Part shown: in pieces, positions 20,158 through 29,019 of the stretch
Numbering within the stretch: the first letter of the stretch is position 1
Layout of the letters: every line of letters starts with the position of its first letter
Source of the DNA: Patescibacteria group bacterium
GTDB lineage: Bacteria; Patescibacteriota; Gracilibacteria; Peribacterales; Peribacteraceae
Reading direction: 5' to 3'
DNA length: 64,000 nucleotides
Assembly (NCBI GenBank): GCA_018814875.1
Contig: JAHIYH010000045.1
Span: 13,316 to 77,315, forward strand
Translations under genes and position numbers: made by a program
Notes under the pieces: model-generated
Told to the model about the DNA's origin: nothing
What the model saw: only the letters and a program-made list of their open reading frames with translations
Database searches by the model: none

Positions 20158-23100
20158 ATGGAACCTTCTTCTGCCACAAAATCACACTCTACCCCAAGTT
20201 CTAAAGCAGGAAATCCATCTGCTGATATGCCCAAGACAGAAGGAAAAGGGCTTACGATCGAGAGGCGATTTACAACTCCGGGAAGTGATCCTCTGGAAGA
20301 AGTAACATACGAGAAGCGTCGCAGTTGTATTAGTAATTCTGATGGATCTGTAGTATTCGAGATGGATGGAGCAGAGATTCCTGTGGATTGGAGTCAGATG
20401 GCTACGGATATCATGGTCAGCAAATATTTTCGTAAGGCAGAAGTACCTCAAGTTGATGAACAGGGGAATGTTCTCAAAGATGATAAAGGTAATGTTGTTA
20501 CGGGCCCAGAACGCAGCGTAAAGCAAGTAGTGCGTCGTCTTTCGGGATGTTGGAGACATTGGGGTCAGCAGTATAATTACTTCGAGACAGCACAGGATGC
20601 GCAGGCCTTCGAGGATGAACTCAGTTACATGTTGGTTCATCAGATGGCAGCCCCAAACAGTCCTCAGTGGTTTAACACTGGATTAAATTATTCTTATGGC
20701 ATCACGGGTCCTGCGCAAGGACATCACTATTGTGACCCCAAAACAGGTGAGGTACAGCAGAGCATGGATGCGTACACTCATCCGCAGCCACATGCATGCT
20801 TCATTCAATCCGTTAGTGATGACATGGTAAATCCAGGAGGACTCATGGACTTGTGGGTTCGCGAAGCACGCTTGTTCAAATATGGATCAGGTACCGGCAC
20901 CAACTTTTCCGAGATTCGCGGATTTGGAGAGGCACTCTCCGGTGGAGGGGTAAGTAGTGGGCTGATGAGCTTCCTAAAGATTGGTGATCGCGCTGCTGGT
21001 GCTATCAAATCCGGTGGAACCACACGACGTGCCGCCAAAATGGTTACACTCAATCTGGATCATCCGGATATCGAGGAATTTATCGATTGGAAAGTAAAAG
21101 AAGAAAAGAAAGTAGCTGCAATGGCAGCTGCAGGATATTCGACAGACTTCAATAGCGAAGCGTATCAAACTGTTTCTGGTCAGAATTCCAATAACTCCGT
21201 TCGTGTTCCGCATTCGTTCTTCGAACAAGTGGAGAAAGATGGAGATTGGGATTTGTATTGGCGTACAGAGCTCAAGTGTGCTGCAAAAGAAGGGCGGACT
21301 CCACAGTCATGTAAGACACTAAAAGCGCGCGATCTATGGGAGAAAATTGGTTATGCGGCATGGGCGTGTGCAGATCCTGGAGTGCAATACGATACAACCA
21401 TTAATGATTGGCACACGTGTCCCAAAGACGGGCGCATCAATGCAAGTAATCCATGTAGCGAGTATATGTTCTTAGATAACACTGCGTGCAATCTAGCCTC
21501 GATCAACCTAATGAAATTCTACGACGAAGAGCATGGAACATTCGAGTTGGAAAAGTTCAAGCATGCTGTGCGCATTTGGACAATCGTTCTAGAGATTTCT
21601 GTTTTAATGGCGCAATTCCCAAGTGAAGAGATTGCAAAACTAAGTTATCAATTCCGAACACTTGGTTTGGGTTATGCAAATCTAGGTGCATTACTTATGC
21701 GTATGGGCATTCCATATGATTCCGATAACGGACGTGCACTTTGTGCAGCTATCACATCAATTCTTACTGGAGAGTCTTATGCAACATCCGCAGAAATGGC
21801 GAAGCACTTGGGTCCGTTCCCGCGCTTTGAACACAATCGTGAAGATATGTTGCGTGTGATCCGTAATCACAGGCGTGCTGCTTACAATGCGCCAGCTGCA
21901 GAATACGAAGAACTAAATGCACTCCCTGTAGGTATCGATCAGAAAATATGCCCTGCAGATCTTCTGGAGTCGGCCAAAGAATGTTGGGACAGAGCACTCG
22001 CTCAAGGAGAGAAGAACGGTTTTCGCAATGCACAGGTCAGCGTGATTGCACCTACTGGCACGATTGGGTTACTTATGGATTGTGATACCACAGGAGTTGA
22101 GCCGGATTTTGCACTCGTTAAATTCAAGAAACTTTCTGGTGGTGGATCTATGAAGATTATCAATCAGTCAGTTGCATCTTCTTTGAAAAAATTAGGACAC
22201 AGCGAACAAGAAATCTATGACATCATACGTTATGTCTCTGGTAGTTTGTCACTCGAAGGTGCACCGCACATAAATAGTCAATCGCTCAAAGACAAAGGAT
22301 GCACCGACGAGGACATTGCACAAATTGAAAAGACATTGCCCGGAGTCTTTGAACTTTCGTTCGCCTTCACGCGATTCATACTGGGTGATGAGGCCATGGA
22401 ACGTCTTGGCATTACTTCGGAGCAACTGGATGATCCGGCTTTCAATCTATTAAAGGAGCTCGGGTTCTCTAAAAAAGAGATCGAAGAAGCTAATATTTAC
22501 ATCTGTGGTCATATGACACTGGAAGGTGCTCCTTATATAAAGGATGAGAATCTCGCGGTCTTCGATTGTGCCAGCAAGTGTGGCAAGGATGGCAGGCGTT
22601 ACATATCTGCAGAAGGCCACATTCGCATGATGGCAGCAGTTCAGCCATTTATTACCGGATCCATTTCCAAGACCATCAATCTTCCACACGAAGCAACTGT
22701 GGAAGACATCAAACAGGCATATTTCCTCAGTTGGAAACTAGGGCTAAAATCGAACGCCCTATATAGGGATGGATGCAAACTAAGTCAGCCACTCTCTGTT
22801 TCTTCCGATAAAGAGAAAAAGGAGTTAAAGGAGAAAAAGGAAACAAAGGAGGTTGTTGAAAGGATTGTCATCAAAGAAGTACCGCGAAGGCGCAAACTTC
22901 CTGATGAGCGCATGTCTATTACTCACAAGTTCTCGGTTGCTGGGCACGAAGGATATTTGCATGTAGGGCTTTACGAAGATGGCACACCGGGCGAGATCTT
23001 TATCAAGATGAGTAAAGAAGGATCCACACTCTCTGGCGTTATGGATACTTTGGCTCTTAGTTTGTCCATGAACCTACAATATGGAGTACCTTTGGATGTT

Positions 23101-23565
23101 CTATGTCAGAAGCTTGTTCGTACACGCTTCGAACCGATGGGTATGACTATTAACAAAGAAATCCCAATGGTAAAAAGCCTGATGGACTATCTCGGTAGAT
23201 GGCTTGCGCTCAAGTTTCTTCCACGTGAACAGGCAGAACAATTCCACAATAAGGATTTGGTAAATCTTGCTTATACTGAGGGGACCAAGAGTAAAGATGC
23301 ATTTGCGATGCGGCTTCCTGTTGTAGATGAGGGGGCACAAGCTCAGACTCCAAAGCTGGATTTCGAAACAGCAGTGGAAAAGAAGACACGCGAAGAGGTA
23401 GTAGAGGCTTCCGAAGAAGTTGGAATTGTAGAAACAAAACTTACTATGGCGCGCCAACAGGGATTCACAGGTTCTATGTGTGGGAACTGTGGTTCTCTTA
23501 GGGTTAAAGCAAATGGTTCTTGCGAAGTTTGTTTGGATTGTGGGGGGACCTCTGGTTGTAGTTAG
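20158..23565 (+). CDS. nrdJ: adenosylcobalamin-dependent (class II) ribonucleotide reductase
   Basis: 1135 aa; NPCSEY active-site region, long-type NrdJ layout, C-terminal CxxC...CxxC tail (CGNCGS...CEVCLDCGG). Confidence 0.9.
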   Translation: MEPSSATKSHSTPSSKAGNPSADMPKTEGKGLTIERRFTTPGSDPLEEVTYEKRRSCISNSDGSVVFEMDGAEIPVDWSQMATDIMVSKYFRKAEVPQVDEQGNVLKDDKGNVVTGPERSVKQVVRRLSGCWRHWGQQYNYFETAQDAQAFEDELSYMLVHQMAAPNSPQWFNTGLNYSYGITGPAQGHHYCDPKTGEVQQSMDAYTHPQPHACFIQSVSDDMVNPGGLMDLWVREARLFKYGSGTGTNFSEIRGFGEALSGGGVSSGLMSFLKIGDRAAGAIKSGGTTRRAAKMVTLNLDHPDIEEFIDWKVKEEKKVAAMAAAGYSTDFNSEAYQTVSGQNSNNSVRVPHSFFEQVEKDGDWDLYWRTELKCAAKEGRTPQSCKTLKARDLWEKIGYAAWACADPGVQYDTTINDWHTCPKDGRINASNPCSEYMFLDNTACNLASINLMKFYDEEHGTFELEKFKHAVRIWTIVLEISVLMAQFPSEEIAKLSYQFRTLGLGYANLGALLMRMGIPYDSDNGRALCAAITSILTGESYATSAEMAKHLGPFPRFEHNREDMLRVIRNHRRAAYNAPAAEYEELNALPVGIDQKICPADLLESAKECWDRALAQGEKNGFRNAQVSVIAPTGTIGLLMDCDTTGVEPDFALVKFKKLSGGGSMKIINQSVASSLKKLGHSEQEIYDIIRYVSGSLSLEGAPHINSQSLKDKGCTDEDIAQIEKTLPGVFELSFAFTRFILGDEAMERLGITSEQLDDPAFNLLKELGFSKKEIEEANIYICGHMTLEGAPYIKDENLAVFDCASKCGKDGRRYISAEGHIRMMAAVQPFITGSISKTINLPHEATVEDIKQAYFLSWKLGLKSNALYRDGCKLSQPLSVSSDKEKKELKEKKETKEVVERIVIKEVPRRRKLPDERMSITHKFSVAGHEGYLHVGLYEDGTPGEIFIKMSKEGSTLSGVMDTLALSLSMNLQYGVPLDVLCQKLVRTRFEPMGMTINKEIPMVKSLMDYLGRWLALKFLPREQAEQFHNKDLVNLAYTEGTKSKDAFAMRLPVVDEGAQAQTPKLDFETAVEKKTREEVVEASEEVGIVETKLTMARQQGFTGSMCGNCGSLRVKANGSCEVCLDCGGTSGCS

Positions 23566-23620
23566 TTGATTACTTGATACTCTGCGCTTAGCCCGCAGGC
23601 GTAGCGCAGACACCTTTAAA

Positions 23621-23968
23621 ATGGAAGAACTTGATATCCCCATTCTTCGCAAATGTTATGATCTTTATAAGACCTTTCACGGACTGCGCGGTCTTGTATC
23701 CAAAGCAGACCGTTATACTCTTTGGCAAAGGTCGGAAAATCTGATCTTGGATGTTATCGAAGGTATTCTGTTTGCAAGTCAGCTTCCTAAGGCTAAAAAG
23801 CTGCCACACTTGGAACAAGTGAGTATGAAACTCAATATGCTTCGTATTTTTCTGCGTCTCACAAAAGAAACAAAGATACTCGATCTTAAGAAGTGTCTCC
23901 TCTTACAAGAGATAGTCGACGAAATTGGTAGAATGCTTGGAGGATGGATGAAATCAGTGAAGGACTAA
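23621..23968 (+). CDS. avd: Avd-like accessory variability determinant (small basic four-helix-bundle protein)
   Basis: 115 aa, helical and Lys/Arg-rich, distant relative of the IVS-protein family; TR starts 47 nt after its stop codon. Confidence 0.7.
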   Translation: MEELDIPILRKCYDLYKTFHGLRGLVSKADRYTLWQRSENLILDVIEGILFASQLPKAKKLPHLEQVSMKLNMLRIFLRLTKETKILDLKKCLLLQEIVDEIGRMLGGWMKSVKD

Positions 23969-23996
23969 AAAACTCCCTCTGTCAGATTGGAGGGAG
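23966..23996 (-). terminator. rho-independent terminator of the TR-sense (minus strand) transcript
   Basis: minus strand reads ctccct-N12-agggag followed by TTTTTT; no T-run on the plus strand. Confidence 0.6.
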
Positions 23997-24014
23997 TAGT
24001 AGAGATGGGGAGAA

Positions 24015-24131
24015 GGACTGCCGAGCGGCCGACAACCACAAGTTGTCATTGCGATTGTCATCCAAGTTTCAGTTGACGTTCACGCGACCCTCGTTGATAT
24101 CGAGTTCGACGTAGTTGTCATCAGGGAGCGC
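24015..24131 (-). other. DGR template repeat (TR), 117 nt
   Basis: aligns gap-free to VR1 and VR2; the minus-sense TR has 29 A; in-frame reading gives ALPDDNYVELDINEGRVNVN*NLDDNRNDNLWLSAARQS (AAC-rich, contains a stop, so non-coding). Confidence 0.9.
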
Positions 24132-24291
24132 TATTTGCCCATTCCCTTCTAGGAGCACTGGAAGTCGAGGTTTACTGTCTTACGACCTATATCCTCTTCT
24201 CCCTGTATTTCATTTGGGAGCAATCCCGCGCATGCGGGATACCTCCACTAGAAATGAGCAAGAAGTTCTTCTCGATCTCAGCTCACTCGCT

Positions 24292-24538
24292 ATCGTGCTC
24301 CATAGAGACACGTTACTCTGGTGAGTTTCCACAATCGCTATCCGCTTAGTGGTAGCAGAGATGAGGTGCACTGCGAGACGAAATCGTAATCTCGGCTACA
24401 AAAGCATTGCACATATTGAGTATATCAAAAAAAGAACCCCCGCGAAAAAAATGTCGCGGAGGTTCCAGCCTTCGCCTATCGGCTACGGCCGGCAGGCAAG
24501 GTGTCAAAAGGGTCAAGCCCTCAAGACTTCAAGGTTCA
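24292..24538. repeat. conserved 3' flank of target gene 1 (copy a of ~247-bp repeat)
   Basis: about 6 mismatches in 247 nt versus 25437..25683 by hand alignment; contains terminator and GC-rich element 24466..24500. Confidence 0.85.
24427..24465 (-). terminator. rho-independent terminator of target gene 1
   Basis: minus strand gaacctccgcga-N8-tcgcgggggttc followed by TTTTTTT. Confidence 0.7.
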
Positions 24539-25225
24539 GGACTTCCGAGCGGCCGACAGCCACAAGTGGCCATAGCGACCGCCACCCAAGCCGCAGACGA
24601 CGACCACGCGACCCCCGTCGATATCGAGCGCGACGTAGTCGCCATCAGGGAGCGCTTCTTCGCAACGACACCAGTCGTTTCTCAGGAGATCGTCGCCAAC
24701 CTCCGTCAGATGGACAAGTAGGGCTGTCGCGGCGACACAAACAGGTGCCGGTTGCCATTCAGCGTCAATACCGGACAGATGTTCAGTCTGCTCACTCCAT
24801 TTTTTGCGGTTCGAGTTCGGAACAGGTAGTAGTAGACGGTAATAGCCCGACTCTGCTTTCCATTCGTGCTGCTCGTACCAGTCCTGATCTTGCATCATGC
24901 GCTCTTGTCCAGCTTTGCTTTCGCGCAGCTCTTTTAGACTCCAACCACCGTAATAGATGACGACTTCGCCATCTTCGGGCTTCGGAGTTGGGACGTTGCA
25001 CTCTGCAGGCAGACCGAGGATACGGCTTACCGCAGTAGCATCGTAGACGATGCCATGCTGGGGACATCCTGCTTGCATGTGACGGACGAGACGTTGCATT
25101 TGAGACGGATCATCAATGCTCGGCTGAAGATCAGTCGAGAGATCGAGACCCTGCTTAGCAGCGCGTTCTGCCCATGCCAGCAGCTTCTTGGTAACAGCAA
25201 ATTCGTCGACAATAGGGTTAGCCAT
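24536..25225 (-). CDS. DGR variable protein 1 (229 aa from the ATG with RBS)
   Basis: aaggag RBS before ATG 25225 (ORF-track start 25282 unlikely); C-terminal 39 codons are VR1; paralog of 25681..26355; no N-terminal hydrophobic segment. Confidence 0.85.
   Translation of the reverse strand: MANPIVDEFAVTKKLLAWAERAAKQGLDLSTDLQPSIDDPSQMQRLVRHMQAGCPQHGIVYDATAVSRILGLPAECNVPTPKPEDGEVVIYYGGWSLKELRESKAGQERMMQDQDWYEQHEWKAESGYYRLLLPVPNSNRKKWSEQTEHLSGIDAEWQPAPVCVAATALLVHLTEVGDDLLRNDWCRCEEALPDGDYVALDIDGGRVVVVCGLGGGRYGHLWLSAARKS
24539..24655 (-). other. DGR variable region VR1
   Basis: 20 substitutions versus TR, all at TR adenines, plus 1 non-A difference and 1 in the terminal GC-rich IMH-like segment (hand count); encodes ALPDGDYVALDIDGGRVVVVCGLGGGRYGHLWLSAARKS*. 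Confidence 0.9.
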
Positions 25226-25329
25226 TATCGTTCTCCTTTTGTCCTCAAACCGTGAGGAACGGGCTTGCTCGGAATGAGACAAGCATGCTACGCCCTTTCA
25301 AAGGCACAGGACGCTTGTCTCAGTGAGAC

Positions 25330-25437
25330 CTTGACGATGCTCTGAAAGACCATCATTATATAGTTTATAACTAAATTCATATCTGTCAATGTTCGATTTT
25401 GTCCTATACTGCCAAATCTGTTTGTAAATATGGTTAA
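25330..25437. repeat. 108-bp repeat, copy a (5' region of target 1)
   Basis: identical by eye to 26488..26595; carries TTGACG-N17-CATTAT on the plus strand. Confidence 0.85.
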
Positions 25438-25683
25438 TCGTGCTCCATAGAGACACGTTACTCTGGTGAGTTTCCACAATCGCTATCCGCTTAGTGGTAG
25501 CAGAGATGAGGTGCACTGCGAGACGAAATTGTAATCTCGGCTTCAATAGCATTACACATATCAAGTATATCAAAAAAAGAACCCCCGCGAAAAAAATGTC
25601 GCGGAGGTTCCAGCCTTCGCCTATCGGCTACGGCCGGCAGGCAAGGTGTCAAAAGGGTCAAGCCCTCAAGACTTCAAGGTTCA
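25437..25683. repeat. conserved 3' flank of target gene 2 (copy b)
   Basis: see 24292..24538. Confidence 0.85.
25572..25610 (-). terminator. rho-independent terminator of target gene 2
   Basis: same hairpin plus T-run as 24427..24465. Confidence 0.7.
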
Positions 25684-26355
25684 GGACTTCCGAGCGGCCG
25701 ACAACCACAAGTTGCCACGGCGATTGCCATCCAAGAAGCAGTAGACGTACACGCGACCCTCGTGGATATCGAGTACGACGTAGAGGCCATCAGGGAGCGC
25801 CTCTTCGCAACGACACCAGTCGTTTTTGAGAAGATCGTTTCTGGTCTCCTTCAAATGAACGAGCAGGGTGGAAGCGCAGAGTGCAACTGGAGCAACTTCT
25901 TCACCAGGCAGAAGGAGATCCTTCTGTTCGGTTAAGTTTTTCCTGTTGCTGTCCGGCACTGGCAAACGGACACGGTAGATGCCCGCCGTCAGCTTCGCAC
26001 TTGCGCAGTCGTACTTGTCGTACCAATCCTGCTGGTGCATCAGCTCCTTGCCGACCTCACAGTCACGCAGATCTTGCAAAGACCAGTCTCCGACGCGGAT
26101 AATGATCTCGTCAGGTGCGGGTTCTGGGAGCGGTTCCGTACTCGCTTCTCCGAAGCCGAGGATTGCAATGGCATCGTAGGTGAAGGACGGAAGTCGCACC
26201 GGCCACACGTCTGCAAGACGTTGCATAGAAGCAGCGTCAGCGTCGAGCATGGCAAGCCATCGCTCTGGCGTGATACCCGCCTCTTGGAGTCGCTTTAGGC
26301 CTGTCGTAATCTTCTTCTGTGGCAGACCAGTCAAGCTTGTTGCGGCGGTCTTCAT
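25681..26355 (-). CDS. DGR variable protein 2 (224 aa)
   Basis: aaggag RBS; C-terminal VR2; roughly half of residues shared with protein 1 over the C-terminal ~150 aa (GDWSL..L, QDWY, LPVP.SNRK, NDWCRCEEALPDG). Confidence 0.85.
   Translation of the reverse strand: MKTAATSLTGLPQKKITTGLKRLQEAGITPERWLAMLDADAASMQRLADVWPVRLPSFTYDAIAILGFGEASTEPLPEPAPDEIIIRVGDWSLQDLRDCEVGKELMHQQDWYDKYDCASAKLTAGIYRVRLPVPDSNRKNLTEQKDLLLPGEEVAPVALCASTLLVHLKETRNDLLKNDWCRCEEALPDGLYVVLDIHEGRVYVYCFLDGNRRGNLWLSAARKS
25684..25800 (-). other. DGR variable region VR2
   Basis: 14 substitutions versus TR, all at TR adenines, plus the shared IMH-like difference; encodes ALPDGLYVVLDIHEGRVYVYCFLDGNRRGNLWLSAARKS*. Confidence 0.9.
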
Positions 26356-26487
26356 GAGATTCTCCTTTACCCCTTAGGGGCATACAAGTATTACCGATTG
26401 TACCGTCGGCTCGGACTTACTCGGAAACGAGACAAGCACCCTATGCACTGCAAAAAATACACAGAGCGCTTGTCTCTTTACATGAAT

Positions 26488-26595
26488 CTTGACGATGCTC
26501 TGAAAGACCATCATTATATAGTTTATAACTAAATTCATATCTGTCAATGTTCGATTTTGTCCTATACTGCCAAATCTGTTTGTAAATATGGTTAA
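26488..26595. repeat. 108-bp repeat, copy b (divergent region between target 2 and RT)
   Basis: identical by eye to 25330..25437. Confidence 0.85.
26489..26517 (+). promoter_or_regulatory. candidate promoter for the RT gene
   Basis: TTGACG - 17 nt - CATTAT, about 85 nt upstream of RT ATG; the same motif is duplicated at 25331..25359. Confidence 0.4.
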
Positions 26596-26603
26596 ATGAA
26601 CAA

Positions 26604-27653
26604 ATGAAAGTATATAGAAACATCTTTGAACGGATCATTTCGATGGAGAACATTTTTACTGCGTGGGAGGAGTTTCGTAAAGGAAAGCAAGCACGAATGG
26701 ATGTGCAGCAGTTTGAGCGCCACCTTGAACAAAATCTTTTTCAATTACACAGGGAACTTTCGGGCGGCACCTATAAACATCAACCCTATAGTGCCTTTAC
26801 AATCTGTGATCCAAAACAACGTCATATTCACAAAGCATCTGTTCGTGATCGTATCGTTCACCATGCCGTATTCTCTGTTCTCAATCCGATTTTCGAGCCG
26901 ACGTTTATTGCTCATTCTTTCTCGTGTAGAAAGGACAAAGGTACACACAAAGCAGTAGATGCGCTGGAACGAATGTTGCGTAAGGAAAGCAGAAATAATA
27001 GCCGTACCTGTTTTGCCCTTCAGTGTGATATCAGCAAATTTTTCGATTCTGTGTCGCACCCAATTCTAAAATCCCAGATCACAAAGCGCATCCGTGATAG
27101 AGATGTCCTCTTACTGATGGATGAAATAATCGGTAGCTTCACTGCTCCGCAATTCGATACCGTTTCGCAGTCTGGCATTCCCATTGGGAATCTCACGTCA
27201 CAGCTCTTTGCCAACGTGTACCTCAATGCCTTGGATCAATTTATGAAGCATGAATTGAAGGTATGTCACTATGCACGCTACACTGACGATTTTGTGATCG
27301 TATCTACAGATCGTGTGTATCTACAATCTCTCATTAAGACTATTGGATCATTCCTCCAACAGGAACTTTCTCTTGATCTGCATCCACGCAAGGTCACAAT
27401 CCGAAAGTTCACACAGGGTATAGATTTTCTTGGATATGTACTTCTTCCTCATCATCGGGTTCTGCGCACACGCACAAAACATCGCATGTTTCGCAAGCTT
27501 CATAAGAGGGCATCGATACATAAAACAGGATCGGAAACCGCTGAAAGTGTTGAGCAATCTCTGTATTCGTATCTTGGTGTTCTCTCTCATGCCAACACCT
27601 ACAGGCTTCGCTCCAAACTTCTCAATCATTATTGGTTCTGGATGACGGAGTAG
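26604..27653 (+). CDS. DGR-type reverse transcriptase
   Basis: RT motifs 1-7 with IGNLTSQ (the I/LGxxxSQ DGR signature in place of the group II QGxxxSP) and YTDDF (YxDD); 349 aa, no maturase or endonuclease domain. Confidence 0.9.
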   Translation: MKVYRNIFERIISMENIFTAWEEFRKGKQARMDVQQFERHLEQNLFQLHRELSGGTYKHQPYSAFTICDPKQRHIHKASVRDRIVHHAVFSVLNPIFEPTFIAHSFSCRKDKGTHKAVDALERMLRKESRNNSRTCFALQCDISKFFDSVSHPILKSQITKRIRDRDVLLLMDEIIGSFTAPQFDTVSQSGIPIGNLTSQLFANVYLNALDQFMKHELKVCHYARYTDDFVIVSTDRVYLQSLIKTIGSFLQQELSLDLHPRKVTIRKFTQGIDFLGYVLLPHHRVLRTRTKHRMFRKLHKRASIHKTGSETAESVEQSLYSYLGVLSHANTYRLRSKLLNHYWFWMTE

Positions 27654-28641: not shown

Positions 28642-29019
28642 TTACTTATTAAGTATGCCAGATCGAAATTTATTGAGTAGATAACTAACTTTTCCAACTT
28701 GATTGTTGAGTTCCTCGTATTGTTCTGCGGTGATGTAATCTAATCTTGAGCTAAGCGAGAGTTGGTAGTCCAATTCTTCCAATGAACCTTCGGCATGCTC
28801 AAGATAGTGAAGTCGCTCCTTATTTGAGCGTTTCGTATTGCCTTCAACAATGTTGGTCGGGACACTTGTGGCAGATCGTCTTATCTGCGCACAGAGAGCA
28901 TATCGTTCTTCAGGAGGAAATTTAGGAAGTAATTTATAAACTTCGAGACAGAGTGCATCTGCCTCTTTCCAAACAATCAAATTCTGATAAGGGCGTTTTC
29001 TCATAGAAAAGTTATTCAC
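28642..29019 (-). CDS. four-helix-bundle protein (23S rRNA IVS protein family)
   Basis: LIVWKEADALCLEVY...QIRRSATSVPTNIVEG motif; GTG start. Confidence 0.85.
   Translation of the reverse strand: MNNFSMRKRPYQNLIVWKEADALCLEVYKLLPKFPPEERYALCAQIRRSATSVPTNIVEGNTKRSNKERLHYLEHAEGSLEELDYQLSLSSRLDYITAEQYEELNNQVGKVSYLLNKFRSGILNK

Follow-up and report, generated by a model that had tools for sequence, protein, structure and literature searches.

The diversity-generating retroelement (DGR) of Bordetella phage BPP-1 has the order mtd-avd-TR-Sp-brt, with its genes and template repeat (TR) co-oriented and a 140-nt spacer (Sp) 3′ of the TR. Cryo-EM structures of its reverse transcriptase (RT), bRT, with Avd and RNA are available as the 8ub7 series (Handa et al., bioRxiv 10.1101/2023.10.23.563531). 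[quoted passage not shown] DGRs are abundant in CPR bacteria, where avd is convergent with the TR in about 90% of elements, a layout catalogued as architecture B3, TR-(avd)-RT (Wu et al. 2018, PMC5758913). Some DGRs have several targets, as in the three-target example in Figure 4B of that work (Wu et al. 2018, PMC5758913).

In multi-target elements, one TR serves several variable repeats (VRs) with a common 3′ IMH-like end. Retrons place the priming nucleotide and the RT-binding structure of their ncRNA (msr-msd) 5′ of the template; the RNA 3′ end pairs back to the 5′ region, and copying starts at the template 3′ end. CPR and DPANN DGRs were reportedly surveyed by Paul et al. in 2017. In the papers on CPR DGRs that we read, we found no upstream spacer, conserved upstream RNA domain or TR-tail pairing.

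The locus described here lies in a 64-kb stretch (the window) of a Peregrinibacteria/Peribacteria-like CPR chromosome. We assign a probability of roughly 0.85 to its being a complete, evolutionarily active DGR, including an RNA mechanism in which the scaffold lies upstream of the TR. The original prediction had recognized the hallmarks of adenine-directed mutagenic retrohoming, and an RT, an Avd, a TR with VRs and two targets are all found. They are arranged as avd(+), TR(-), a 300-nt leader(-), target1-VR1(-), target2-VR2(-) and RT(+), so that the strand opposite avd and the RT carries the TR plus both targets (Table 1).

The best solved-structure match of the RT is bRT (8ub7_A; E 1.6e-50, 175 bits), aligned at full length over residues 2-338, whereas group II intron and retron RTs reach at most 98 bits. 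The predicted 349-aa frame with IGNLTSQ and YTDDF holds at its coordinates, and the NCBIfam group II, retron and Drt models all score below their own cut-offs; judged by these matches, the protein is a DGR-clade RT. The 115-aa product that had been called Avd-like passes Pfam PF22296 bAvd (E 1.7e-15, 57.9 bits, cut-off 40) and matches NCBIfam NF033474 DivGenRetAVD at E 8.9e-20 and 70.9 bits, under the cut-off of 80.

The window thus shares with BPP-1 the RT family, with its full-length match and the motifs IG(N/S)LTSQ and Y(T/M)DD, an Avd, a TR of ∼120 nt with AAC-rich codons, a VR that ends a lectin-fold gene at its 3′ side (a probable fold here) and a GC-rich IMH-like segment followed by TR/VR differences. 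It differs in that avd is antisense to the TR, the RT sits past the targets on the other strand, the structured domain is 5′ of the TR, and a pair of chromosomal genes takes the place of the single phage tail-fibre gene as targets. With the CPR/DPANN B3 elements it shares a CPR host, an avd that adjoins the TR 3′ end on the opposite strand, and small targets lacking a Pfam domain. Five class II relatives (L006, L008, L009, L011 and L019) have exactly the full B3 order, target-VR / leader / TR / (avd) / RT. In the window, by contrast, TR and RT are on opposite strands, with the RT beyond both targets, and avd does not lie between the TR and a co-oriented RT. The window shares with L001, L003, L004, L012, L014, L016 and L064 an inversion of the whole avd-TR-leader-target module with respect to the RT. 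As judged from gene order, the locus derives from B3 by inversion and has a tandemly duplicated target unit. Neither the convergence of avd with the TR, nor this inversion, nor the shortage of space for a canonical spacer 3′ of the TR was part of the original prediction. Two VRs also occur in L021 and L029; unlike other multi-target DGRs, the targets of the window are adjacent tandem units with near-identical noncoding flanks and divergent coding bodies.

Table 1. Features of the DGR locus, in window coordinates.
Feature	Position (strand)	Size	Description
avd	23621..23968 (+)	115 aa	Accessory variability determinant; convergent with TR; Pfam, NCBIfam
Hairpin CTCCCTC-N10-GAGGGAG + U6	23967..23996 (-)		18 nt past end of TR/VR homology
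TR 3′ tail AGUCCUUCUC	24010..24019 (-)		Predicted template strand of template:primer-like duplex with segment P
TR	24015..24131 (-)	117 nt	29 A in minus-sense; in-frame stop
RNA domain	24132-24279 (-)	∼150 nt	Adjoins TR 5′ end; covariation
Strand a GGGAAUGGGCAA	24135..24146 (-)		3′ half of 12-bp closing helix; ends 3 nt ahead of TR
RNA domain interior	24147..24249 (-)		Between strands b and a; covariation
Second single strand	24147-24159 (-)	13 nt	RNA domain interior
Stem-loop H6/H7	24160-24203 (-)		RNA domain interior
Single strand CAAAUGAAAUACA	24204-24216 (-)	13 nt	RNA domain interior; conserved
Stem-loop H5	24217-24246 (-)		RNA domain interior
Strand b UUGCUCAUUUCU	24250..24261 (-)		5′ half of closing helix
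Segment P GAUCGAGAAGAACUUC	24262..24277 (-)		Directly 5′ of strand b; complementary to TR tail; candidate primer strand
Leader 5′ part (D1el)	24292..24432 (-)		97.6% identical copy at 25437-25577, after VR2
Hairpin H1	24366-24412 (-)	17 bp	Within D1el
Extended -10-like TGnTAnnnT	24419-24428 (-)		Within D1el; conserved
Intrinsic terminator, target gene 1	24433..24466 (-)		Terminator scan
Target gene 1	24536..25228 (-)	230 aa	VR1 at 3′ end
VR1	24539-24655 (-)	117 nt	Last 39 residues of target gene 1
5′-UTR hairpin GAGACAAGC...GCUUGUCUC	25275..25322 (-)		Target 1; conserved; target 2 copy at 26426-26479
D3 promoter block	25330..25437		108/108 identical to 26488-26595
Second D1 copy	25437..25683 (-)		3′ of VR2; terminator 25578-25611 plus leader 5′ part
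Target gene 2	25681..26355 (-)	224 aa	49% identical to target 1; VR2 at 3′ end
VR2	25684-25800 (-)	117 nt	Last 39 codons of target gene 2
D3 copy	26488..26595		Divergent promoters: target 2 (-) and RT (+)
RT	26604..27653 (+)	349 aa	DGR reverse transcriptase; structure match and motifs

Unexpectedly, the leader contains a covarying RNA domain that abuts the TR. In its closing helix (helix 1), 9 of 12 pairs show changes in both partners, and pairing holds in 98.6% of cells. The whole domain has 51 consensus pairs, 31 of them compensatory, and a pairing of 96.6%, against 86% in shuffles and 39-49% when slid; its strand is fixed by the many G-U pairs. A covariance model, R1, finds the domain at full length in 30 loci, with 30 of 34 pairs changing on both sides (observed values reached by 0/500 shuffles), and its end falls 0-8 nt ahead of the independently mapped TR in 19/19 loci. 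Rfam searches of 23500-26700 (gathering and E ≤ 1) returned nothing beyond one chance-level sRNA match.

The element order strand b / stem-loop / 13-nt single strand / long stem-loop matches that of the phage RNA at Sp59-139, where the single strand is also ∼13 nt. In this topology the closing helix looks like the “cPRT stop” duplex of the phage, and strand a would be the analogue of its avd-side strand. No sequence or covariance-model similarity to Sp was detected; the best match of R1 to phage BPP-1 with filters off has E = 0.48 on the wrong strand, and homology to Sp is therefore undetected and the topology analogous only. RNAalifold, given an input from the 3′ part of the leader through the TR to 120 nt beyond it, pairs strand a alternatively with UUGCUCCC because strand b is cut off from this input; the alternative pairing might represent a conformational switch. 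Two other pairings were considered and dropped: that of H1 with the GC-rich end of the TR (GCCGAG/CTCGGC), as H1 covaries internally in L008 and L009, which lack the complementarity, and that of the TR tail with the purine-rich leader segment GGGAGAAGAGG, which is part of helix H6, itself strongly covarying internally.

Directly 5′ of the closing helix, segment P is complementary to the TR 3′ tail, which is conserved past the end of VR homology. This complementarity is kept in eight unrelated sequence versions, from 8 clades. Of three representative sets, two have the cognate pairing as the best among 40,320 permutations; in the third, 3/40,320 reach it. Within the window itself, the P:tail duplex is only average, at -11.2 kcal/mol and with one A.C mismatch, and the tail pairs at least as well with 97 of the 284 upstream windows of 16 nt. 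Support for the predicted pairing comes from comparison across loci. With P paired to the tail and helix b:a at the TR 5′ end, the TR would be looped out between adjacent duplexes (cf. the Bordetella phage RNP), much as BPP-1 RNA has a duplex at the TR 5′ end beside one on the TR 3′ tail. This arrangement would place the RT and priming scaffold upstream of the TR, and we infer from the covariation a circular permutation of the DGR RNA, in which the counterpart of Sp comes before rather than after the template. By analogy with the phage, the primer strand, the “cPRT stop” partner, a “thumb-ring”-like single strand and the RT-binding stem-loop may all lie 5′ of the TR.

The alternative that best withstands these data is a canonical DGR RNA, in which the functional spacer lies downstream (hairpin plus antisense avd) and the upstream domain is merely a leader, with a role for instance in stability or the control of TR transcription, or else a small RNA in its own right. 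The phage spacer does lie downstream of the TR, most loci have a hairpin right after the TR, in the way reported for Avd-binding stem-loops, and the P:tail duplex of the window is unremarkable. The space available is nevertheless small. In the window, TR/VR homology ends about 46 nt from the avd stop codon, with a single hairpin in between, and across loci the distance from TR to avd stop is merely 18-90 nt, with antisense avd beginning ≤∼10 nt from the tail in L023, L024 and L030. The window's hairpin belongs to the MFE fold, and its stem covaries in relatives (CTCTCTC/GAGAGAG in L004 and L012); a simple terminator scan missed it because its loop is 10 nt. Its U-run overlaps the avd stop codon. 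It is likely the terminator of the TR RNA, as class I loci have a hairpin followed by a U-run, and possibly an Avd-binding stem-loop. The antisense-avd stretch beyond it shows codon periodicity alone (identity 0.93/0.83/0.58), its third positions being free to vary, and RNAalifold on the input above gave no consensus pairs 3′ of the TR. A canonical structured spacer was not found downstream of the TR; the equivalent helices are upstream, in a domain that always adjoins the TR and whose 5′ neighbour covaries with the TR tail. We consider the canonical arrangement unlikely.

Alignment of the repeats was recomputed. The TR, VR1 and VR2 align three-way over 117 nt each without gaps, at the coordinates originally proposed, and each VR stops at the last sense codon of its minus-strand ORF. 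The computed differences reproduce the earlier hand counts exactly: 22 between VR1 and TR (20 at TR adenines, T>C at position 97 and C>A at position 112) and 15 between VR2 and TR (14 at adenines and the same C>A), with 29 adenines in the TR. The adenine enrichment on which the original prediction depended is clear in both VRs (binomial against 29/117 A, p = 1.0e-10 for VR1 and 3.8e-8 for VR2). Of the TR adenines, 27/29 are at codon positions 1 or 2. Read in the VR frame, the TR gives ALPDDNYVELDINEGRVNVN and NLDDNRNDNLWLSAARQS on either side of an in-frame TGA, in keeping with its proposed non-coding nature. The last 39 codons of both targets have been overwritten from this one noncoding TR and randomized at its adenines. 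At the 3′ end, the GC-rich GTCGGCCGCTCGG is followed by C in the TR and by A in both VRs here and both in L064, with full divergence 5 nt further on. As the earlier reading had it, a GC-rich segment followed by a difference common to both VRs looks like an IMH/IMH* pair; the nearest inverted repeat downstream of it is the gene terminator, 72 nt off. No third TR-like copy or further target paralogue occurs within the 64-kb window.

The 4,041-bp cassette recurs at 89% identity in a sister contig, L064, whose TR differs at 10 sites. At the TR differences the non-A base of each TR is present in both of its own VRs (e.g., positions 9, 19, 42 and 68), while where the TR has A the VRs retain A or vary; 19/21 and 24/25 mismatches of the L064 VRs to their cognate TR fall on A. 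Because the VRs track their own TR at non-A differences, retrohoming into both targets postdates the split between the window and L064, which shows, at the level of sequence, transfer of information from TR to VR on an evolutionary timescale. The comparison serves as a stand-in for the read mapping that the original prediction had proposed. These data bear on whether the locus is a decayed or domesticated remnant, its repeats recording past activity with no diversification now. Decay does happen in this clade, since in L007, a related locus, neither TR nor avd is detectable beside the RT and targets. In the window, however, every ORF is intact, the RT retains YTDDF and IGNLTSQ, the TR retains its adenines at codon positions 1-2, and the VRs, whose substitutions differ from each other, have both followed the TR since the L064 split; a remnant is thus highly improbable. 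Ordinary paralogous duplication (a pseudogene fragment and two paralogues, with adenine bias by chance) would account for the plainly tandem target unit but is practically refuted by the binomial values, by gene parts outside the VRs that are 60% identical (DNA) against 81-87% between VRs and TR, by the adjoining RT and Avd, and by the recurrence of the A-specific TR/VR pattern in 19 related loci.

The two genes that the DGR has diversified lie in tandem units, whose noncoding flanks are 97.6-100% identical while their coding bodies agree at just 60% outside the VRs. Within the D3 block, TTGACA-16-TAAACT on the minus strand is the predicted target promoter, and CTGTCA-16-TATACT is predicted on the plus strand. 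Sequence searches of Pfam, NCBIfam and the PDB gave no usable match for either target. An AlphaFold model (pLDDT 88) has Foldseek top matches that are all C-type-lectin-like (rhodocetin and the C-terminal domains of Bd2740 and Lcl), at a weak E of 0.03-0.3 and target-normalized TM of 0.47-0.65; a BFVD fold search gave weak DUF1566 and C-type-lectin matches and nothing else. Among 67 target homologues the variable columns lie in the C-terminal VR. The models suggest that the diversified proteins are small binders with a probable lectin fold.

We propose the following mechanism, with the transcript start, 3′ end and priming nucleotide as predicted from sequence. A minus-strand RNA would begin at ∼24412, from the conserved extended -10 just past the target-1 terminator, pass through hairpin H1, segment P and the ∼130-nt domain closed by helix b:a into the TR, and terminate at the 23967-23996 hairpin and its U-run. 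Segment P would pair with the TR 3′ tail, with helix b:a at the TR 5′ end. RT-Avd would then cis-prime close to the 3′ end of P, miscopy the TR at A and halt at helix b:a, and the cDNA would replace VR1 or VR2 by crossover within the GC-rich GUCGGCCGCUCGG segment. The likeness of this RNA to a retron ncRNA is one of topology only: the RT belongs to another clade with much weaker retron RT matches, there is no msr/msd sequence or Rfam match, and the retron product is msDNA, whereas the DGR product is for retrohoming into VRs.

As a DGR, the locus adds little, being one further CPR element of an ordinary kind; its RNA layout, with the scaffold ahead of the TR, is the candidate new variant. It also allows an unannotated family of 67 targets to be labeled as DGR targets with a probable lectin fold. 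Cryo-EM work of 2024 found the DGR RNA scaffold to be essential, and the covarying domain together with the P/tail covariation suggests that this scaffold can be permuted around the template. We lean slightly toward the view that convergent-avd CPR DGRs in general use a circularly permuted, retron-like RNA primed internally upstream of the template. If true, this would explain how convergent-avd elements function without a downstream spacer. If confirmed, it would provide a second, compact natural design of template RNA useful for engineered DGR mutagenesis, show DGR-finding software where the noncoding part sits in CPR genomes and supply a covariance model that locates TRs independently of VRs.

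The variable repeats of both target genes (VR1 and VR2) differ from the template repeat (TR) almost exclusively at its adenines. The minus-strand TR (117 nt) contains 29 adenines, 27 of them at codon positions 1 and 2. VR1 differs at 20 and VR2 at 14; the only other differences are a T>C at position 97 of VR1 and a C>A at position 112 that both VRs carry. Our recomputed alignment reproduces these counts exactly as they stood in the original prediction, and, given 29 adenines in 117 positions, the binomial tail for adenine bias is 1.0e-10 for VR1 and 3.8e-8 for VR2. VR1 and VR2 constitute the last 39 codons of minus-strand ORFs of 230 and 224 aa, respectively, and in the VR frame the TR translates as ALPDDNYVELDINEGRVNVN*NLDDNRNDNLWLSAARQS. 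No additional TR-like copy or target paralogue was found within the 64-kb window.

Features of the locus, with solitary copies of the leader 5' part in this and related loci
Feature	Coordinates	Strand	Remarks
avd, 115 aa	23621-23968	+	Pfam bAvd 57.9 bits (cut-off of 40 passed)
Hairpin with U-run		-	18 nt 3' of TR
TR	24015-24131	-	117 nt, ungapped three-way alignment
Strand a	24146-24135	-	Followed by 3 nt, then TR
Stem-loop H6/7, then second 13-nt single strand		-	Before strand a
Conserved 13-nt single strand CAAAUGAAAUACA		-	Between H5 and H6/7
Strand b	24261-24250	-	Second in order, followed by stem-loop H5
P (candidate primer strand)	24277-24262	-	First in minus-strand order, directly 5' of strand b
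Intrinsic terminator after VR1	24466-24433	-	
VR1	24539-24655	-	117 nt, ungapped three-way alignment
Intrinsic terminator after VR2	25611-25578	-	
VR2	25684-25800	-	117 nt, ungapped three-way alignment
DGR RT, 349 aa	26604-27653	+	RVT_1 match; PDB match 8ub7
Solitary leader 5' part, window	25437-25577		
Solitary leader 5' part, L007	4889-5044		
Solitary leader 5' part, L049	4719-4797		
Solitary leader 5' parts, L050	1679-1783; 3613-3680		

Among solved structures, the reverse transcriptase (RT) is matched best, and over its full length, by the RT of the Bordetella phage diversity-generating retroelement (DGR; E 1.6e-50, 175 bits); no group II intron RT exceeds 98 bits, and those of the retron, Drt and Abi types are much weaker matches. 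In NCBIfam, which holds no DGR RT model, all RT models present fall below cut-off. Avd scores 70.9 bits against NCBIfam DivGenRetAVD, under that model's cut-off of 80. In four related loci (L001, L008, L011, L016) the avd ORF extends 10–17 codons beyond the conserved GGWMKS end, and the extension crosses the antisense of the hairpin 3' of the TR. Another four-helix-bundle protein is encoded 1 kb beyond the RT (28642-29019, minus strand) and belongs to the 23S rRNA-intervening-sequence family (PF05635, E 1.4e-35); it matches bAvd weakly (38 bits) and is probably unrelated to the DGR.

A sister contig, L064, located via a protein 88% identical to target 1, carries a cassette that is 89% identical to exactly 23617-27652 of the window, from avd start to RT stop, between unrelated flanking genes. 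The two TRs differ at 10 positions. Where one TR has a base other than A at such a position (e.g., 9, 19, 42, and 68), that base is present in both of its VRs; where it has A, its VRs retain A or vary. The L064 VRs mismatch their own TR at adenines in 19 of 21 and 24 of 25 cases. Since both VRs match their own TR at the non-A differences, this comparison indicates that each of them acquired TR information after the lineages had diverged, and it is the closest stand-in for the read mapping proposed in the original prediction. Together with the adenine-specific repeats and the RT and Avd matches, this transfer supports the original interpretation of the locus as a DGR, which we regard as almost certain. 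The homology limits of the 4,041-bp cassette are sharp. Its neighbors (L064 1639-2607 and 6572-9490 compared with window 20158-23565) are a class II ribonucleotide reductase in the window, and in L064 a serine recombinase on one side and an MmeI-type restriction-modification gene on the other. These limits and differing neighborhoods hint that the cassette may move as a unit.

The TR and both targets lie on the minus strand, and avd and the RT on the plus strand. An RT-based scan of one genome per species yielded 36 loci, 19 of them with A-specific TR/VR pairs, which fall into two layouts. Class II, in the order target-VR, leader, TR, (avd), RT, corresponds to the B3 architecture found in 90% of CPR DGRs (Wu et al., 2018, PMC5758913). 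Class I (the window, L001, L003, L004, L012, L014, L016, and L064) has the avd-TR-leader-target module inverted relative to the RT, and avd is convergent with the TR in both classes. As a DGR, the locus is an unexceptional representative of a CPR class with many members, its module being inverted and its target duplicated.

The target unit is tandemly duplicated (24292-25437 and 25437-26595). Its non-coding ends are 97.6–100% identical (241/247; 108/108), the latter being a 108-nt block in two identical copies that contains the target promoters (TTGACA-16-TAAACT) together with a divergent RT promoter, whereas the UTRs are ∼75% and the non-VR coding DNA just 60% identical. Each of the two types of target gene is also found alone in other genomes, and UTR2, for example, is 92% identical to the UTR of L012. 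These conserved flanks, divergent coding bodies and single occurrences suggest that the units are mosaics produced by recombination or gene conversion at the flanks, rather than by simple duplication and divergence. An ∼30-nt GC-rich insertion (GCCTGCCGGCCGTAGCCGATAGGCGAAGGCT on the minus strand) separates each VR from its terminator (24470-24500 and 25615-25645) and, among 12 loci aligned, is restricted to the window. The 5' UTRs of both targets contain an inverted repeat, GAGACAAGC...GCUUGUCUC, followed by UUUCCGAGCAAGYCCG (25275-25322 and 26426-26479, minus strand). Its stem is invariant in 10 sequences despite diverging coding regions (L001–L016 and L064 compared), and so lacks the variation by which covariation could separate an RNA hairpin from a DNA operator. 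L007 (JAQUKV010000003, 3900-7070), from the same MAG as L014, encodes an RT 64% identical to that of the window and has, besides a fragment of the leader 5' part, a convergent pair of target-like genes; a search of this locus for avd and a TR found neither. L007 may be a decayed DGR, or the complete DGR of L014 may serve it in trans, although the L007 VR is just 66% identical to the L014 repeat.

The two targets share 49% identity and matched nothing in Pfam, NCBIfam or PDB sequences. Both fall within a family of 67 unannotated proteins found in Peregrinibacteria, Peribacteria and Patescibacteria, including the exact NCBI protein KKF55_05765, with a conserved body and a variable C-terminal region of ∼40 columns. 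The best Foldseek matches of an AlphaFold model (pLDDT 88, pTM 0.77) are all C-type-lectin-like (rhodocetin, the Bd2740 C-terminal domain, the DEC205 CTLD, and the Legionella Lcl C-terminal domain), with weak statistics (E 0.03–0.3; TM 0.47–0.65 normalized on the target). A viral structure library gave weak DUF1566 and C-type-lectin matches only.

Between the target-1 terminator and the TR lie 300 nt of conserved non-coding sequence. RNAalifold on 15 loci predicts 51 pairs, 31 with compensatory changes; 96.6% of leader alignment cells are paired, compared with 86% in column shuffles and 39–49% when 3' partners are slid, and none of 500 shuffles reaches any observed pairing measure. R1, a covariance model built on the 152 positions nearest the TR, recovers the domain in its entirety in 30 loci, each time on the same strand as the TR; the hosts include Peregrinibacteria, Saccharibacteria, Parcubacteria, Levyibacteriota and Yanofskybacteria, among others. 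In all 19 loci where the TR was mapped independently, the domain ends 0–8 nt 5' of it. Both partners vary in 30 of 34 pairs of the R1 alignment, and pairing holds in 97.5% of its cells; because the model guided the alignment, this count is tilted toward structure. The strand is identified by invariant and frequently occurring G-U pairs. No Rfam family matches the domain, which, judged by its covariation, is a real RNA structure. Strand a (GGGAAUGGGCAA, 24135-24146) has two possible partners within 24217-24261: strand b (UUGCUCAUUUCU) and a similar sequence, UUGCUCCC, in the 3' half of H5. RNAalifold run without strand b pairs it with UUGCUCCC; the two predicted pairings could represent a conformational switch. 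An extended -10-like motif and hairpin H1, which make up the 5' part of the leader, also stand alone 3' of VRs that have no adjacent TR, where they could act as a read-through promoter, be left over from a duplication or form an element associated with VRs.

The order of these elements resembles that in phage BPP-1, which we checked against the phage sequence. The 5' part of the BPP-1 RNA comprises the avd 3' end (strand a), the TR and an Avd-binding stem-loop (Handa et al., bioRxiv 10.1101/2023.10.23.563531). In its spacer (Sp), a primer strand (Sp47-56) pairs with the TR 3' tail and carries the priming A56; after a 2-nt linker, strand b (Sp59-70) pairs with strand a as the "cPRT stop", followed by a short stem-loop and adenosines, a 13-nt "thumb ring" and a long bRT-binding stem-loop (10.1101/2023.10.23.563531). 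The window likewise has a 12-bp b:a helix at the TR 5' end, like the phage stop duplex. In contrast, its candidate scaffold elements lie 5' of the TR, whereas in the phage the stem-loop, primer strand and strand b onward lie 3'. R1 has no significant match to BPP-1, so the two RNAs are linked by topology alone, not homology.

In 23 loci, the TR 3' tail (24010-24019 in the window) finds its complement in the 17 nt directly 5' of strand b. At least eight unrelated sequence versions of this match occur, for example GAAGGAAC with GUUCCUUC, GAAGGGAC with GUCCCUU (L004), GAGAAGGAAGUCC with GGCACUUCCUUCUC, AUCGAGCA-C-UCC with GGA-C-UGCUCGAU, AAUGUAGGCACU with AGUGCCCACAUU, and UUCUUGAGAUAUUCC with GGGAUAAUCUCUCAAGAA. 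We compared the summed duplex energies of all 40,320 assignments of P to tail in an exact permutation test with one locus per clade. The cognate assignment is the lowest in two representative sets, and its energy is reached by 3 of 40,320 in a third. The window's own duplex is unremarkable (-11.2 kcal/mol, one A.C mismatch), and 97 of 284 upstream windows form a duplex with the tail at least as good as that of its P. The predicted duplex starts directly 3' of the GC-rich segment, at the first TR/VR difference (C in the TR, A in both VRs), and conservation of the TR tail extends past the end of VR homology.

On the other side of the TR there is a single hairpin and then antisense avd, a stretch with plain codon periodicity (identity 0.93/0.83/0.58 by phase), and RNAalifold finds no conserved pairs there. 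For DGRs at large, with CPR listed among the taxa, Handa et al. reported downstream stem-loops together with stop duplexes, but the sequence they examined spanned just 40 nt on the 5' side and 100 nt on the 3' side of the TR (10.1101/2023.10.23.563531). Our literature search, whose coverage excluded Paul et al. (2017), found no description of an upstream scaffold. Taken together, the phage-like order of the upstream domain, its P:tail complementarity and the lack of conserved pairs 3' of the TR point to a DGR RNA that would be circularly permuted, with the scaffold for priming and RT binding placed 5' of the template. Such an RNA is predicted to be transcribed from the minus strand over ∼450 nt, from about 24412 to about 23967, and to be joined to its cDNA within 24262-24266. 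That the upstream domain is a relocated spacer is the best-supported reading, with a probability of roughly 0.55–0.6, and it is this putative role that would give the locus its greater-than-routine interest.
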